From assembly GCA_964635055.1 (NCBI GenBank), contig CAZWMT010000020.1, positions 25,145 to 89,144 of the forward strand: a DNA stretch of 64,000 nt, written 5' to 3'. The stretch's first letter is position 1, and each line of letters begins with the position of its first letter. Positions 27,716-57,800 of this stretch are shown here, in pieces. Origin of the DNA: an uncultured Microthrixaceae bacterium (GTDB lineage Bacteria > Actinomycetota > Acidimicrobiia > Acidimicrobiales > DATDAH01). The notes beneath the pieces were generated by a model. The model worked only from the letters and a program-made list of their open reading frames with translations, was not told where the DNA came from and did not search any database. Made by a program: the position numbers and the translations under genes.

Positions 27716-27827
27716 CGTCAGGCCCGGCGAGCCAGGGCCGCAGTAGCCACCGACCCGGGCGTCAGGGCCCGGCGAGCGAGGGCCGCCGTAGCCACCGACC
27801 CGGGTGTCAGAGTCCGGCGAGCGAGGG
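27716..27827. repeat. Intergenic tandem repeat, about 45-bp unit, about 2.5 copies
   Basis: Unit (c/t)gtcag(g)gcccggcgagc(c/g)agggccgc(a/c)gtagccaccgacccggg at 27716 and 27760, partial copy at 27805. Confidence 0.85.
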
Positions 27828-37632: not shown

Positions 37633-37989
37633 TCAGCTCGTTCGACGCAGCCGCTGGGCGGCGCGGTTGGTGCCGGCGGCGATGGCCAAGGCCTTGATCA
37701 CCGGCGTGGACAGGGCATCGGTGGTCAGGCGGGCCCGCGCCTCGGCGGCCGCGGTGATGCGCTCGGCCGCGTCGAGCAGCCCGTCGGTGCGGTCCATCTC
37801 GGACTCGGCGTGGCCGACCGCGTGCTGCAGGGCGTCGACCGTTGCCGCGGTCTCCGACCGGAGGTGCTCGACCTCGGCGTTCAACGCCCGCACCGCCCGG
37901 GCCAGCCACGCGACGACGGCCACCAGCAGGCACAACGCGATCGTGCTGGCCACCGCCACGACCAGCGCGGTGATCTCGACGGCGCTCAC
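37633..37989 (-). CDS. DUF948-like membrane-anchored coiled-coil protein
   Basis: N-terminal TM, heptad-like helix, PVIKA motif; GTGA overlap with rarA. Confidence 0.7.
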   Translation of the reverse strand: MSAVEITALVVAVASTIALCLLVAVVAWLARAVRALNAEVEHLRSETAATVDALQHAVGHAESEMDRTDGLLDAAERITAAAEARARLTTDALSTPVIKALAIAAGTNRAAQRLRRTS

Positions 37990-46326: not shown

Positions 46327-47493
46327 TCACCGCTTCTTCTTCTTGCGCGGCCGGGGCGGGATCACCGTGCCCCCGGGAGTGGTCGACGGTCGTGCCAGCG
46401 GGTCGACGGGGGCGTCGGATCCCCCCTTCGCCGTCTTGGCGCCGCCCTTGGCCGCGCCGACCCCTGCGGGCACGGGCGCACCCCGCAGCGACGACACCGA
46501 CGCGTGACGGATCCCGGTCACCGGCACCGGCCCGCCGTAGGCCCGCTCGAGGCGCTCGCGGAGCGCCCGGTTCCGGGGCTCGCGCTCCTTCAGGTGGGAG
46601 ACGAGGCTGGCGGCGACGACCAGCGAGGAGTACGCGCCGCTGAGCAGGCCGACGAACAGCGCGAACCCGAACTCCTCGAGGCTCACCGCACCCAGCAGGT
46701 ACGCACCGATGAGCAGCAGCGAGATCACCGGCACGATGGTGACGAAGGTGGTGTTGAGCGACCGCATGAGGGTCTGGTTCAACGACAGGTTCATCAGCCC
46801 GGTGTAGGTGGTGCGGTTGGCCAGGCCGACGCGCGCCTGGTTCTCCCGCACCTTGTCGAACACCACGATGGTGTCGTAGAGCGAGAACCCGAGGATGGTG
46901 AGGAACGCCACCACCGTGGCCGGCGTGACCACGATGGCGAACACCGAGTAGACGCCGACGCAGATGACGATGTCGTGGACCACCGCGACGAGCGCGCCGA
47001 TGGCCATGCGCCACTCGAGGCGCAGGGCGATGTACAGGCCGAGCACGATGAAGAAGATGACGAGGGCGCGCACGGCCTTCTCGGTGATGTTGTCGCCCCA
47101 CGAGGGGCCCACCGTGCTGACGCTGATCTCGCCGGGCTCCACCTGCGCGGTCTCGGAGAGGAGCTCGGTGATCTCGCCGCTGCGGTCGACCGCATCGACG
47201 CCGGCCTGCACCCGGATCACCTGGTCGCCCGACTGGTTGGTGAGCGTCTGGATCTTGGCGTCGCCCTCGTCGACGGTCACCATCGCGCTGCGGACGTCGG
47301 CGATGGACGTCTGCTCGCTGGGGAACTCCCAGACACCGCCGCCCGAGAAGTCGATGCCCAGGTTGAGGCCCCGGGTGAACAGCGACACGACACTGATGAT
47401 CACCAGCACGATCGACAGCGGGATGCCCACCCGCCACAGCTTGCGGAAGTCGTAGTCGTTCTCGCCCCGATAGAGGCGGGACACCGTGCTCAT
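46327..47493 (-). CDS. secF: Protein translocase subunit SecF
   Basis: GIDFSGG, VGPSWG, HD, SLYDTIVVFDKVREN, RSLNT. Confidence 0.96.
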   Translation of the reverse strand: MSTVSRLYRGENDYDFRKLWRVGIPLSIVLVIISVVSLFTRGLNLGIDFSGGGVWEFPSEQTSIADVRSAMVTVDEGDAKIQTLTNQSGDQVIRVQAGVDAVDRSGEITELLSETAQVEPGEISVSTVGPSWGDNITEKAVRALVIFFIVLGLYIALRLEWRMAIGALVAVVHDIVICVGVYSVFAIVVTPATVVAFLTILGFSLYDTIVVFDKVRENQARVGLANRTTYTGLMNLSLNQTLMRSLNTTFVTIVPVISLLLIGAYLLGAVSLEEFGFALFVGLLSGAYSSLVVAASLVSHLKEREPRNRALRERLERAYGGPVPVTGIRHASVSSLRGAPVPAGVGAAKGGAKTAKGGSDAPVDPLARPSTTPGGTVIPPRPRKKKKR

Positions 47494-47558
47494 GTCTCCC
47501 GCTCCTGTTCGCTTCGCTCACGGGCCTCTCGGGCCACGCCCTCGTGCCTCGGCCTCAT
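47490..47558 (-). repeat. MIRU-like 65-bp unit encoding coupled micro-ORF MRPRHEGVAREARERSEQERET
   Basis: ATGA overlaps with the secD stop and the secF start; homologous to the ruvA/ruvB units. Confidence 0.8.
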
Positions 47559-53164: not shown

Positions 53165-54306
53165 GGGGTCGCTCCGGGCTCATCGGTGGCCAACTCGTGG
53201 ACGAGCGAGTCCACGACCGCGACCAGCGAGCCACGGTCGGCCATGACCGCCCGTTGACGGTCGTAGCTCGCGCCGCGCTCGAGGATCTGGTGCACGTCGT
53301 CGAGCTCGTCGGGGCACCCGAGCCGCTGTGCGATCGGGTGCAGTTCGTCGAGCAGTTCCACGATCGCCTCGCGCAAGGGGCGGCACGCGCCCTGGTCGTC
53401 CACGATCAGGGCGGCATCGAGCCCGTGGCGGGCCGCCCGCCACTTGTTCTGCCGGAGCACCCACTCACGCGGCACCGGGAGCTGATAGCCCCGGTCGTGC
53501 AACGTGTCGAGCCAGTGCACCAGCGACTGGGCCAGCGCGGCGAGGGCGGCCACCTCCCGCAGCGTGGGGATGCCGTCGCACATGCGCAGCTCGACGGTGC
53601 CGAAGTCGGGGTGGGGACGGATGTCCCACCACACCTCGCGGACGGTGCCGATGGCCTCGGCGGACACCAGCGTCTCCATGAACTGCTCGAACTCCCCCCA
53701 GTCGACGATCTGCTCGGGCAGCCCGGCGGTGGGCAGGCCCTCGAAGATCTTGCTGCGACTCGAGGCCAGCCCCGTGTCGTGGCCCTCCGAGTACGGGCTC
53801 GACGCCGACAACGCCAGGAGGTGCGGGATGTAGCCGGACAGCGCGTTGGCGATGGCCACCACCTTCTCGGGCGATCGCACGCCGACGTGGAAGTGCACGC
53901 CGAAGATCTGGAGGCGCTGCGCCATCCAGGCCATCTCCGCCATCAGGATGCGGTAGCGCTCGTCGTCGGTCACCACCTGGCGCCGCCAGTCCGAGAACGG
54001 GTGGGTCCCCGAGCACAGCAGATCCAGGCCCCGGGCGTCGGCGCAGGCCCGCACCTCGGCCAGGGTGGTGCCGAGGTCGGCCTTGGCCTCCTCGACGGTG
54101 GCGCAGATGCCGGTGATCACCTCGATCGTGCACTCGAACAGCTCGTGCTTGGCCTTGGGGTGCTCCCCGCCGGGATGGCCGGCCCCGATCGTGTCGAGGA
54201 TCGCCGACGCCGCGCTGGACAGTTCCCGGGTTTCGCGGTCGACGAGCTCGAATTCGACCTCGACCCCCAGGCTGGGGCCCACTGAGCTGTTGAAGTCGAT
54301 GTGCAG
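53161..54306 (-). CDS. YbdK/GCS2-family carboxylate-amine ligase (glutamate--cysteine ligase 2)
   Basis: LGVEVEFELVD, IEVITG, GTHPF, FGVHFHVG, ALSASSP, WWDIRP, GTVELR, NKWRAARHG; start extended to CTG 54306 (the first GTG is at 54282). Confidence 0.9.
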   Translation of the reverse strand: MHIDFNSSVGPSLGVEVEFELVDRETRELSSAASAILDTIGAGHPGGEHPKAKHELFECTIEVITGICATVEEAKADLGTTLAEVRACADARGLDLLCSGTHPFSDWRRQVVTDDERYRILMAEMAWMAQRLQIFGVHFHVGVRSPEKVVAIANALSGYIPHLLALSASSPYSEGHDTGLASSRSKIFEGLPTAGLPEQIVDWGEFEQFMETLVSAEAIGTVREVWWDIRPHPDFGTVELRMCDGIPTLREVAALAALAQSLVHWLDTLHDRGYQLPVPREWVLRQNKWRAARHGLDAALIVDDQGACRPLREAIVELLDELHPIAQRLGCPDELDDVHQILERGASYDRQRAVMADRGSLVAVVDSLVHELATDEPGATP

Positions 54307-54318
54307 AGGAGTTCGAGA

Positions 54319-55389
54319 CTACTCCGGCGCGAGGTCGTCGAAGAGACCGGGCCCCGGCGAGGACGACCCACGGGGTGGCGGCGGCACGGCCAGGCCCAGG
54401 TGACGCCACGCCGCGGGGGTGACGATGCGGCCCTGCGGGGTGCGCATCAGCAGGCCCTGCTGGATCAGGAAGGGCTCGTACACGTCCTCGACGGTCTCGC
54501 TCGGCTCGCCCACGCTGATGGCCAGCGTCTTGAGGCCCACCGGGCCCCCGCCGAAGTGGCCGCAGATGGCGGTGAGGATGGCCCGGTCGACCTTGTCGAG
54601 GCCCATGGCGTCGACGCCGAACAGGGCCAGCCCCTCGTGGGCGGTGGCCTCGTCGACCACGCCGTGGGCCCGCACCTCCGCGAAGTCACGCACGCGACGC
54701 AGAAGCCGGTTGGCGATGCGGGGCGTGCCCCGAGAGCGCGAGGCGATCTCGTGGCGGCCCGCCGCGTCGATGGGCACGCCCAGGATCTCGGCGGTACGCC
54801 CGACGATGGCATCGAGCTCGTCGGCCTCGTAGTAGTCGAGTCGGGCCACCAGGCCGAACCGGTCGCGCAGTGGCCCGGTGATCAGCCCGGTGCGGGTGGT
54901 GGCGCCCACGAGGGTGAAGCGGGGGAGGTCGAGCCGGATGGAACGGGCGGCCGGGCCCTTGCCCAGCACGATGTCGAGCTGGAAGTCCTCCATCGCCGGG
55001 TAGAGCACCTCCTCGACGGCGCGGGCCAGGCGGTGGATCTCGTCGATGAACAACACGTCACCCTCGGCCAGCTTGGTGAGGATGGCGGCCAGGTCGCCCG
55101 CTCGTTCGAGGGCGGGGCCCGACGTCACGTGCATGGCCACGCCCATCTCGGTGGCCACGATGCCCGAGAGCGTGGTCTTGCCGAGGCCCGGCGGGCCGGC
55201 GAACAGCAGGTGGTCGGCGGCCTGGCCCCGCTTGCGGGCCGCCTCGAGGATCACCCGCAGGCGCTCCTTGAGCTCGCGTTGGCCGACGAACTCGTCGAGG
55301 TTGCGGGGCCGCACCCCGACCTCGTCGAGCACCTCGTCCTCGGCGACCTGGGGTGCCAGCAACTCGTCGCGCAACAGCTCCTCTCTCAT
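54319..55389 (-). CDS. ruvB: Holliday junction branch migration helicase
   Basis: [47 protein letters not shown]. Confidence 0.98.
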
Positions 55390-55533
55390 GTGCGGCGCCT
55401 CACGTCATCGGCTCCTGGCTCCTCCGTCGCCGGGCCGCTCGGGCCCCGGCCCCGTTCCTCGGCCTCACGTCATCCGCTCCTGGCTCCTCCGTCGCCGGGC
55501 CGCTCGGGCCCCGGCCTCGTTCCTCGGCCTCAT
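55386..55533 (-). repeat. Two tandem MIRU-like 65-bp units plus a 14-bp stub, forming a chain of coupled micro-ORFs
   Basis: Micro-ORFs 55465-55533, 55400-55468 and 55386-55403, each linked by ATGA/GTGA from the ruvA stop to the ruvB start. Confidence 0.85.
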
Positions 55534-56141
55534 GACGCCACCGCCAGTCGTTGGAGGGCGACCCGCAGCAACAGGGCGGCGTCGCCCTCGCCGGGCAGGT
55601 CGTGGAGCACCTCGCGGATCTCCTCGGGGCCGTAGCCCAGGCCCGAGAGAGCGTCGTGCACGTCCCGGCGGGTGGTGGGGCCCTGGCCCGTGGCCGCTCC
55701 GTCCAGGCGGGTCACGTCGAGATCACCCAGGTCGAGACGGGACTTCAGCTCGACCAGCAGGCGCGTGGCCGTCTTGCGCCCCACGCCCGGGACGAGGCAG
55801 AGCGCGTCGAGGTCGTCGTCGGCCAGCACCTGCTGGAGGCCCCGGGGATCGTGCACCGACAAGATGGCCAGGGCCAGCGCGGGGCCCACGCCGTGGGCAC
55901 CCAGCAGCGCTTCGAAGCAGCGCCGCTCGTCGGCGGTGGTGAAGCCGTACAGGGTCTGGGCGTCCTCGCGGATGTGGTGGTGGATGTGCAGGAACGCCTC
56001 GTCGCCCACCTCGCCCACCGCCACCGCGGTCGCCGGCGCCACCGTGACGCGGTAGCCGACCCCGCCGACCTCGACCAGCACCTCCGAGGCACTCGGGCCC
56101 AGGCCGCGGTCGAGCAGTGTGCCCCGCAGCGACCCGATCAC
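55530..56141 (-). CDS. ruvA: Holliday junction DNA-binding protein
   Basis: VIGSLRG, VGGVGY, IREDAQTLYGF, GVGP, VPGVGRKTA; GTG overlaps the ruvC stop. Confidence 0.96.
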   Translation of the reverse strand: MIGSLRGTLLDRGLGPSASEVLVEVGGVGYRVTVAPATAVAVGEVGDEAFLHIHHHIREDAQTLYGFTTADERRCFEALLGAHGVGPALALAILSVHDPRGLQQVLADDDLDALCLVPGVGRKTATRLLVELKSRLDLGDLDVTRLDGAATGQGPTTRRDVHDALSGLGYGPEEIREVLHDLPGEGDAALLLRVALQRLAVAS

Positions 56142-56638
56142 GAGTCCGCCCGGGCGACGGCGAGCCTCGTCGGCTCGTAGGCCAGATGGCACAACGCCAG
56201 TGCGGCGGCGTCGGCGGCGTCGGCGGGCCGGGGTGGGGCGGGGAGACGCAAGAGGGTCTGCACCATCTGCTGCACCTGTTCTTTGTCGGCGGCGCCGTGA
56301 CCGGCCACCGCTTCCTTCACCTGGTTGGGCGTGTACTGGGCGACCAGGCACCCGGCCGCGACCGCCTCGGCCATCGCGATGCCGCTGGCCTGCCCGACCG
56401 ACATGGCCGTGCGCACGTTGACCTGGAAGAACACCCGCTCGACGGCCACGGCCGCCGGCGCGAGCTCGGCCAGCAGGAGCCGGAGCTCGCGCTGGAGCTC
56501 GGCCAGGCGTTGGGGCAACGGGTCGGTGGGCGGGGTGGTGATGACGCCGATCGCCACGGCACGGGGACCCTCGGCACGGGCCTCGACACAGCCGTAACCG
56601 CAGCGCGAGAGGCCGGGATCGATGCCGAGCACGAACAT
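56138..56638 (-). CDS. ruvC: Holliday junction resolvase
   Basis: LGIDPG...GYG, AVERVFF, YTP.QVK, G.ADK.QV, DAADA. Confidence 0.96.
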   Translation of the reverse strand: MFVLGIDPGLSRCGYGCVEARAEGPRAVAIGVITTPPTDPLPQRLAELQRELRLLLAELAPAAVAVERVFFQVNVRTAMSVGQASGIAMAEAVAAGCLVAQYTPNQVKEAVAGHGAADKEQVQQMVQTLLRLPAPPRPADAADAAALALCHLAYEPTRLAVARADS

Positions 56639-56645
56639 ACGTACG
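56632..56645. promoter_or_regulatory. Probable LexA (SOS) box overlapping the ruvC start codon
   Basis: CGAAC-ATAC-GTACG, one mismatch to the Gram-positive consensus CGAAC-N4-GTTCG. Confidence 0.65.
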
Positions 56646-56678
56646 CCAAGATAGCCCCCCGGGGCGGCTACAGCGCGG

Positions 56679-57800
56679 ATGGCTGGTGCCGATGCAACCA
56701 GGGTGACTCTCACCACGGCGCGTCCCCGGCCGGCCGCACCCACGCCCGAGAGCCCGGCGGACCTGGCGGTTGAGCTCCGCTCGGTGTCGCGGGGCTTCGG
56801 CGACGTGCAGGCCCTGGCCGACCTGAACCTCTCCGCCCCCCGGCAGAGCATCACGGTGCTGCTCGGGCCCAACGGTGCCGGGAAGACCACGGCGATCCGC
56901 ATGATCACCGGAGCGCTGAACCCCGACACCGGCCACGTGCGGGTGTTCGGCCTCGACCCGGCGATCGACGGCGAGGCCGTCCGGACCCGCTGCGGTGTCG
57001 TGTCGGCCAAGCCTGCGCTCTACGACCGGCTAACCGGGTGGGACAACCTGGCCTACTCCGCCGAGCTGTACGGCCTCGGCCGCGGAGACGCCGCGGCGGC
57101 GGCGATTCGCTCGTCGGCGGCGCGGTTCGGCATCGACGGCGCCCTCGACCACCAGGTCGGGGGCTACTCGACCGGCATGAAGACCCGCCTGGCCCTCGCC
57201 CGGTCGGTGATGCACGGCCCCGACCTGTTGCTCTTCGACGAGCCCACGTCGGGGCTCGACCCCGAGTCGTCCCACGCGGTGCTCGAGCTGATCCGCGAGA
57301 TGGCCGACACCGGGTCGACCGTGGTGATGTGCACGCACCTGCTGCTGGAGGCCGAGGGCCTGGCCGAGCAGGTGGTGGTGCTCGACGGCGGCACCGACCT
57401 GATCGCCGGCTCGCCCGACGAGCTGACCCAGCGGTTCTGGCCGGGCGCGGTGGTGCGACTGGACGCCGAGGACCCCGCCGACCTCGACCGCCTGGCCGGG
57501 GCCGAGGGGGTGCTGTCCTACGAGCGCGACGAGCGCGGCCTGGCCGCCTCCGGCGCCGGGGGCGCGGCCGTCACGGTGCAGCTCGATGACCTGTCCCGGG
57601 TGCCCGACCTCGTGTTCGACCTGGCCCGTGCCGGAGTGCGGGTCACCCGCGTCGAGCCCCGCATCCCCTCGCTCGAGGACCTCTACTTCGCGGTGCGCGA
57701 CGGGCGGGAGGCCTTCTCCGAGAAGGGCCGGGGCACGAGCGCACGGGCCGACGGCACCGGGGCCGACGGCACCGGCGAGGGCGACGAGGTGGCGGCATGA
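56679..57800 (+). CDS. ABC transporter ATP-binding protein (ABC-2 exporter type)
   Basis: GPNGAGKTT, YSTGM signature, LLFDEPTSGLD, CTH. Confidence 0.93.
   Translation: MAGADATRVTLTTARPRPAAPTPESPADLAVELRSVSRGFGDVQALADLNLSAPRQSITVLLGPNGAGKTTAIRMITGALNPDTGHVRVFGLDPAIDGEAVRTRCGVVSAKPALYDRLTGWDNLAYSAELYGLGRGDAAAAAIRSSAARFGIDGALDHQVGGYSTGMKTRLALARSVMHGPDLLLFDEPTSGLDPESSHAVLELIREMADTGSTVVMCTHLLLEAEGLAEQVVVLDGGTDLIAGSPDELTQRFWPGAVVRLDAEDPADLDRLAGAEGVLSYERDERGLAASGAGGAAVTVQLDDLSRVPDLVFDLARAGVRVTRVEPRIPSLEDLYFAVRDGREAFSEKGRGTSARADGTGADGTGEGDEVAA

Follow-up and report, generated by a model that had tools for sequence, protein, structure and literature searches.

Mycobacterial interspersed repetitive units (MIRUs) lie in sense orientation and duplicate their DTGA target. 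According to the review by Brown and Wade (PMC12548453), they are apparently mobile, insert at start codons, and carry an ORF coupled at −4, which likely limits the harm of insertion; a 53-nt class is mentioned in PMC4213456. Termination–reinitiation at ATGA overlaps has been tested for other gene pairs (PMC6728339). REPs, in turn, are small hairpins whose caps read GCGNAGC or whose stems read GA-GC...GC-GA, at least in the entries of PMC2817692 Table 1 and in PMC3733652. Besides MIRU, no element living in coupling sites was found in searches of the open-access literature, and the initial annotation was likewise not aware of such a family outside mycobacteria. The repeat family that occupies the ruvA/ruvB junction in a member of the Acidimicrobiia is different from MIRU and apparently undescribed.

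The window considered here is a stretch of 64,000 nt from an uncultured Microthrixaceae bacterium (contig CAZWMT010000020.1), and the genome that carries it, designated G000, is 94% complete. The identities of ruvC, ruvA, and ruvB were assigned by NCBIfam, with ruvA (55530–56141) matching TIGR00084 and ruvB (54319–55389) matching TIGR00635, both above the cut-off; these genes and all the junction features below are on the minus strand. RuvB is 58% identical to that of M. triplex, 67–77% identical to its counterparts in same-order genomes, and 69% identical to that of Ca. Aldehydirespirator, so the host is not a Mycobacterium. ruvC and ruvA are joined by an empty GTGA overlap (56138–56141).

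Between ruvA and ruvB, the initial annotation had described a chain of two units and a linker held together by four 4-nt (A/G)TGA overlaps, and this chain is confirmed. The ruvA stop (TGA, 55532–55530) forms the entry overlap, ATGA (55533–55530), with repeat unit 1 (55465–55533), which has a 65-nt period and a 22-codon micro-ORF reading MRPRNEAGARAARRRRSQERMT before its stop. Unit 2 (55400–55468) has the same period and again a 22-codon micro-ORF, and it is followed by the linker VRRRT (55386–55403, 14-nt period), whose TGA is overlapped by the ruvB ATG at 55389. The three periods, 65, 65, and 14 nt, are all of the form 3n+2. The initial annotation also gave each unit its own AGGAG word before the next start, and this holds: the Shine–Dalgarno-like (SD-like) AGGAG of unit 1 (55477–55481) and that of unit 2 (55412–55416) stand 8 nt upstream of the GTG of unit 2 and of the linker, respectively. 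The second AGGAG serves VRRRT, and the only SD-like word upstream of ruvB is a GAGG within the linker, 8 nt before the ATG. Such a −4 overlap with an SD site inside the upstream frame, and a short ORF that would deliver ribosomes, resemble the coupled systems presented in PMC6728339 and PMC12548453; the difference is that the upstream frame here is a repeated, probably mobile unit, with up to several relays chained.

Units 1 and 2 are identical at 62 of 65 bases, and TRF reports a period of 65 with 2.1 copies (score 258). The two-unit array is real rather than an assembly artefact, since a mismatch-free contig of 82–84 nt spans the unit 1/unit 2 junction in runs X3, X7, and X9, which belong to three further studies, as well as in X13, possibly from the source study; contigs of RNA runs show sequence, not expression. 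The same junction contig is not listed for runs X14–X17, which represent a variant strain. In runs X14, X16, and X17, this strain differs over window positions 55363–55469 by substitutions only, one of them at the free base of a GNA loop. The VRRRT linker, present in a nearly identical form in the congener G005, is likely a relic of an older unit that has kept the frame, as suggested by two remnants at other G000 sites (23 and 14 nt) that keep the frame. No promoter or terminator consensus was detected at the junction by a scan limited to sigma-70, and Rfam models gave no matches at E≤1 in window positions 54000–57000.

The initial annotation had supposed a dispersed family, placed in sense at RTGA coupling sites, and the genome-wide check bears this out. 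With an iterated nhmmer profile, 76 units are recovered from G000 at E≤1e-3, and none from the reversed genome; the census by this profile together with three extra motifs comprises 58 arrays, with up to nine units in one array, although one of the 58 (C5:196154) is probably a false match. Gene calling relied on an in-house hexamer model, which gave 5178 genes and 463 overlaps at −4, and start choices therefore carry some error. A complete bridge from stop through micro-ORF to gene is formed in 35 of the 51 non-edge arrays, one of them being an in-frame extension and three passing through extra non-family linkers; the other 16, which are not complete bridges by the script rule, include eight start-only sites, N-gap or CTGA-ended arrays, and a small number of decayed copies. 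Within the co-directional gaps of 45–350 nt, bridging is seen in 29 of 34 that hold the family and in 108 of 1422 others matched in length (Fisher p 2e-26), and the orientation in such gaps is sense in all 34 cases and antisense in none. A shuffle null that keeps the gap length and both ends gave 12 of 31 bridged against 25 observed; it overstates chance bridging, and the length-matched comparison was used instead.

Chained micro-ORFs of any kind bridge 213 of the 2075 co-directional gaps of 5–400 nt in G000; in several of these, the junction itself is repeated locally in tandem, as at C28:58863 with its three 17-nt frames. The genome also holds another repeat family, built around a GCGSAGCGGAGCGGA core, at C13:13292 (minus), C31:65110 (plus), C9:149282, C11:10394, C36:34795, C56:34493, and C83:754. 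At least two copies of this second family, 86 and 92 nt long, likewise span RTGA overlaps while keeping a frame open.

Family sites comprise 35 overlaps and 8 start-only sites, while overlaps make up only 428 of the 1660 RTGA starts in the genome (p 4e-14). This preference for overlaps is not explained by the DNA target alone; either copies survive better where their frame matters, or overlaps may truly be targeted. Four of the eight start-only sites have a TANNNT box 7–8 nt upstream, as is the case for leaderless starts. Of 40 selected units, 32 have the same N in the NTGA of either end (p 5e-6 for the A/G table), with one TTGA/TTGA and one CTGA/CTGA unit among them, and this agreement fits target duplication. 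Templating of the first unit bases by the target gained no support, a 4-base match being seen in 11 of 42 cases. The predicted 3n+2 length holds for 84 of the 85 units that match a frame-blind pattern, of which 74 belong to the 65-nt class and so are not independent. At C4:86019–86123 of G000, two units start with ACGA rather than ATGA; the upstream frame enters the unit, and the chain re-forms in another frame at an internal GTGA.

The window holds a second copy of the repeat, a single 65-nt unit (47490–47558, minus strand) that bridges the secD stop and the secF start. In congeners, the secD/secF junction has an 89-nt unit in G005 and no unit in G002, G003, G006, and G007. At 37986–37989 (minus strand), the window has an empty GTGA site, whose orthologous site in G005 holds one unit. 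A 45-nt tandem repeat at 27716–27827 (2.5 copies, 91% matches) is not of the ruvA/ruvB family by profile.

The empty ATGA site that the initial annotation suggested looking for at ruvA/ruvB in relatives does exist: a plain −4 overlap with no unit is seen in G001, G002, and G006 of the same genus, as well as in G020 and G026 of the same order. Among the six same-genus genomes in which the locus is available, three are thus empty and three have unrelated or decayed fillers, namely a 38-nt frame ending in the nearly identical linker in G005, a 29-nt frame in G007, and four chained 17-nt micro-ORFs unrelated to the family in G003 (locus L006). Frames of 59 and 77 nt precede the ruvB start in G012 and G015, and the filler frames at this junction are 3n+2 across all these relatives. 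At a further locus, L018, ruvB starts 8 nt inside ruvA, and there is no true micro-ORF chain.

A broader comparison started from the 32 top-scoring arrays of G005, 25 of which have orthologous flanks in G000. Of these 25 G000 sites, 12 are filled (locus L232 being counted as such after reading by eye), 9 are clean empty, 3 bear short remnants, and 1 is rearranged. Eight of the nine clean empty sites consist of a single RTGA. At the shared filled sites, the subtype or the number of units mostly differs between the two genomes, so copy number varies between close genomes, in line with the expected tandem expansion. Since six of the nine empty sites read RTGAGC, like the start of the unit itself, some of them may be losses rather than pre-insertion states, and single sites may have arisen through loss with a footprint.

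Each unit is built in the order RTGA, hairpin 1, hairpin 2, hairpin 3, AGGAG, spacer, and RTGA. In unit 1, hairpin 1 (55513–55529) has a 4-bp stem, a tandem GA/GA, one further pair, and a GNA loop, and both sides of its stem differ from the family majority; hairpin 2 (55497–55512) is the nearly invariant core common to Acidimicrobiia, and hairpin 3 (55482–55496) has a variable stem capped by C-GNA-G. Over 85 units from G000 and its relatives, hairpin 1 keeps the GNA loop in 72, with a closing pair of G-C in 63 and C-G in 18, and the tandem GA/GA in 80; its stem shows four kinds of two-sided change and about as many one-sided breaks. The three-hairpin structure as named has 85% of cells paired and six pairs changed on both sides, as compared with 27–41% when it is slid, in a set of 23 related sequences; the covariation counts thus take in related sequences. 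Hairpin 3 is diverse, with 71 forms in 129 metagenome matches; in its 60 distinct odd-length forms, 287 of 320 stem positions are Watson–Crick, and the GNA loop is kept in 41. By standard energy models, the stability is not out of the ordinary (z between −1.0 and +0.35), sheared G-A pairs and GNA loops being left unscored by them. GCGNAGC-type mini-hairpins are far more stable as DNA than as the matching RNA, as reported in PMC13037366, and hairpins with a free middle base in a G-N-A loop would fit such a DNA-type signature. Terminal inverted repeats, as in MITEs, are lacking in the G000 units, and degenerate inverted ends were recognised by eye in the long copies of G031, G197, G261, and G273.

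The initial annotation regarded the family as one of this lineage. A genome-wide family is indeed present, but the core is spread over the class, often in a non-coupling REP-like form. Model R1 has matches in all 17 same-family genomes (2–95 copies) and in 2 of 13 others, and the 15-nt core occurs in at least ten exact copies in 29 of 300 sampled Acidimicrobiia genomes from nine families, with at most six copies in the reversed control; across the class, copy number ranges from 0 to >150. The upper end is represented by G031 (Ca. Aldehydirespirator, Acidimicrobiales, one chromosome), which has >150 copies and gives 52 profile matches in 400 kb. Its copies, often with degenerate inverted ends, do not bridge overlaps, are mostly preceded by YYAG and sometimes by a TAG stop, and occur in both orientations (22 sense, 13 antisense, and 9 mixed in 44 rows).

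Among 50 copies from 12 more distant genomes read by eye, five are full bridges and six are other RTGA-bounded micro-ORFs, in six genomes. In metagenome contigs, where 63 of 121 loci are too short to assess, 17 of the 58 assessable loci hold a frame bounded by RTGA that leads into a start, and a stop gives entry to 8 of the 17 as well. Judged by the core that bridging and non-bridging copies share, the relay form recurs as one variety of a broader REP-like element. In other lineages, the core is read in three different frames, and the peptide is therefore not what is kept. Viral contigs gave no matches to the core pattern.

Taken as a whole, the units are probably a dispersed, hairpin-rich mini-element, likely a non-autonomous mobile repeat, that enters RTGA starts, chiefly those overlapping a stop, and likely survives by rebuilding translational coupling. 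It would thus be a selfish mini-element, likely tolerated because the coupling is rebuilt. We infer that mobility is enzyme-driven, that the element is recognised as single-stranded DNA, and that the units are translated. Insertion would duplicate NTGA, so that the old stop overlaps the first codon of the element and the TGA of the element overlaps the restored start. A ribosome ending ruvA would then reinitiate on the unit, translate its 22 codons into a throw-away peptide, terminate, and start again at the following RTG with the aid of AGGAG. Slippage between direct repeats or unequal exchange could add or remove whole units, and only 3n+2 lengths, along with remnants that preserve the frame, would survive selection. 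A trans-acting enzyme would likely read the C-GNA-G and tandem-GA hairpins as single-stranded DNA, in the manner in which RAYTs read REP hairpins.

The search for such an enzyme covered several candidates. Y1_Tnp (RAYT/IS200, PF01797) is encoded in none of G000, G002, G003, G005, G031, and G033. The core was not found at 36 of 37 loci with matches to IS110, DUF559, GIY-YIG, or reverse transcriptase (RVT_1), and the only copy near such loci lies beside a UvrC-sized GIY-YIG gene. When the neighbours of the copies were clustered (428, then 542 proteins), the largest clusters contained only housekeeping proteins, for example, ABC, epimerase, and dehydrogenase.

That no mobiliser has been found is what could be expected if the units spread with no dedicated enzyme, copies and short RTGAGC-like sites exchanging sequence through homologous recombination or gene conversion and the hairpins only aiding slippage and template switching. 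The exchange of unit subtypes at the same sites between G000 and G005, the two alleles of the ruvB-side unit that exist side by side in runs X16 and X17, and the unrelated 17-nt tandem chains at the same junction in G003 are all compatible with this route. The clean empty sites, however, share only about 4–7 bases with the unit, which is too few for RecA-type exchange, and recognition by a protein is suggested by the polarity of the element, its fixed ends, and the covariation of its hairpins across the class, so spread without an enzyme seems quite unlikely to us.

The mini-element reading has also to be weighed against a host-selected regulatory cassette, in which the number of units or their hairpins would determine how much downstream protein is made relative to the upstream one, in this case RuvB relative to RuvA. 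The strong bias to coupled junctions, the difference in copy number between close genomes, and the SD-like site in each unit could all be accommodated by regulation, and promoter activity has been reported for the MIRU-bearing senX3-regX3 region in PMC4213456. Nevertheless, the occupied junctions belong to unrelated operons, and presence is patchy: ruvA/ruvB is empty in G001, G002, and G006, secD/secF is unit-free in four of five congeners, and 13 of the 25 orthologous G005 sites have no full unit in G000. Neither the lack of a promoter or terminator consensus at the junction in the sigma-70 scan nor the occurrence of the core in both orientations in G031 favours a cassette, which we rate as very unlikely. 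The suggestion of the initial annotation that the units tune RuvA:RuvB stoichiometry is accordingly unsupported, ruvA/ruvB being one of dozens of unrelated junctions, empty in three of six congeners, with a peptide that is not conserved.

The mini-element shares with MIRUs its short dispersed intergenic units, tandem at some loci (58 arrays, up to nine units), its insertion at start codons, where its ORF is coupled to the next gene at −4 (35 full bridges, 8 start-only sites, and empty orthologous RTGA sites), and its sense orientation with apparent target duplication (34 sense and 0 antisense; NTGA agreement in 32 of 40). It differs in the host class, Acidimicrobiia, in its modular three-hairpin build with 50–125-nt variants and an invariant core that mycobacterial units do not have, in a more tightly kept frame (39 of 58 units are 3n+2 in the mycobacterial sample), and in having non-bridging sister forms. 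The comparison set consists of MIRU-type units of non-tuberculous mycobacteria, recognised by length and by one two-component locus rather than from published type sequences; 34 of the 58 units from named mycobacteria are 53 nt long, and one unit of the set, L089, has a histidine kinase gene on one side and that of an OmpR-type regulator on the other, presumably senX3-regX3. Three units of the mycobacterial type also occur in tandem at L074 (CAWCXI010000001.1), in a bin labelled Alphaproteobacteria, which may reflect a wrong label or a transfer.

Both kinds of units have GAGCGNAGCGA followed by AGGAGYGG about 5 nt before RTGA, in the same frame, and a pattern of the family 3′ half retrieved 118 loci, 117 of the mycobacterial 53-nt type and 1 of this family; the list is partly a product of design, since the gap and degeneracy of the pattern were set with a MIRU motif in mind. 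Apart from these short words, there is no significant cross-match between profiles: model R1 gives a best E of 0.03–0.29 in four genomes with the mycobacterial type, with all nine inspected weak matches falling off those units, and the mycobacterial-unit profile gives a best E of 1.6 in G000, with one family match among 29 at E 10. The independence from MIRUs assumed in the initial annotation thus stands at the level that profiles can test. That the units are true, very diverged MIRU homologues belonging to one Actinomycetota-wide family is highly improbable, as the shared words amount to a mini-hairpin that is stable as DNA plus an SD site, either of which could have arisen by convergence, and GCGNAGC appears also among the enterobacterial REPs of PMC2817692 Table 1. 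As far as sequence can tell, the family works like a MIRU, and it is not shown to be one.

The likeness to REP/RAYT systems is of another kind, comprising short imperfect palindromes in high copy between genes. An inner GAGCTTGCGA is common to the Coxiella REP listed in PMC2817692 Table 1 and the short form of G031, and G031 copies mostly follow YYAG and sometimes a TAG stop, GTAG REPs often supplying a stop themselves. In contrast to REPs, the family has no GTAG or CGTC head (RTGA in G000, mostly YYAG in G031) and no Y1_Tnp flanked by the repeat in any of the six genomes, and the G000 units are direct, sense-only, 50–125 nt long, and coding, rather than inverted doublets.

It is conceivable, though on balance doubtful, that this family and MIRUs form a coupling-adapted branch of a wide class of orphan single-stranded DNA hairpin elements, served by an undescribed trans enzyme whose site choice is tied to coupled stop/start junctions, with Acidimicrobiia holding REP-like and relay forms of one element. 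If so, the shift between the REP-like and relay lifestyles, as well as the mobiliser, could be traced by genome comparison. Since copy number varies from 0 to >150 within one class and the core is common to bridging and non-bridging forms, the mobiliser can be searched for by phylogenetic profiling, and this in organisms that are harmless.

Nothing new is learned about RuvAB from the repeat. The arrays are ready strain markers for an activated-sludge lineage, and the units are a natural source of short ribosome-relay cassettes. Finally, with a second, sequence-distinct family, translational-coupling sites prove to be a hiding place that selfish DNA can adopt repeatedly, and not a mycobacterial oddity.
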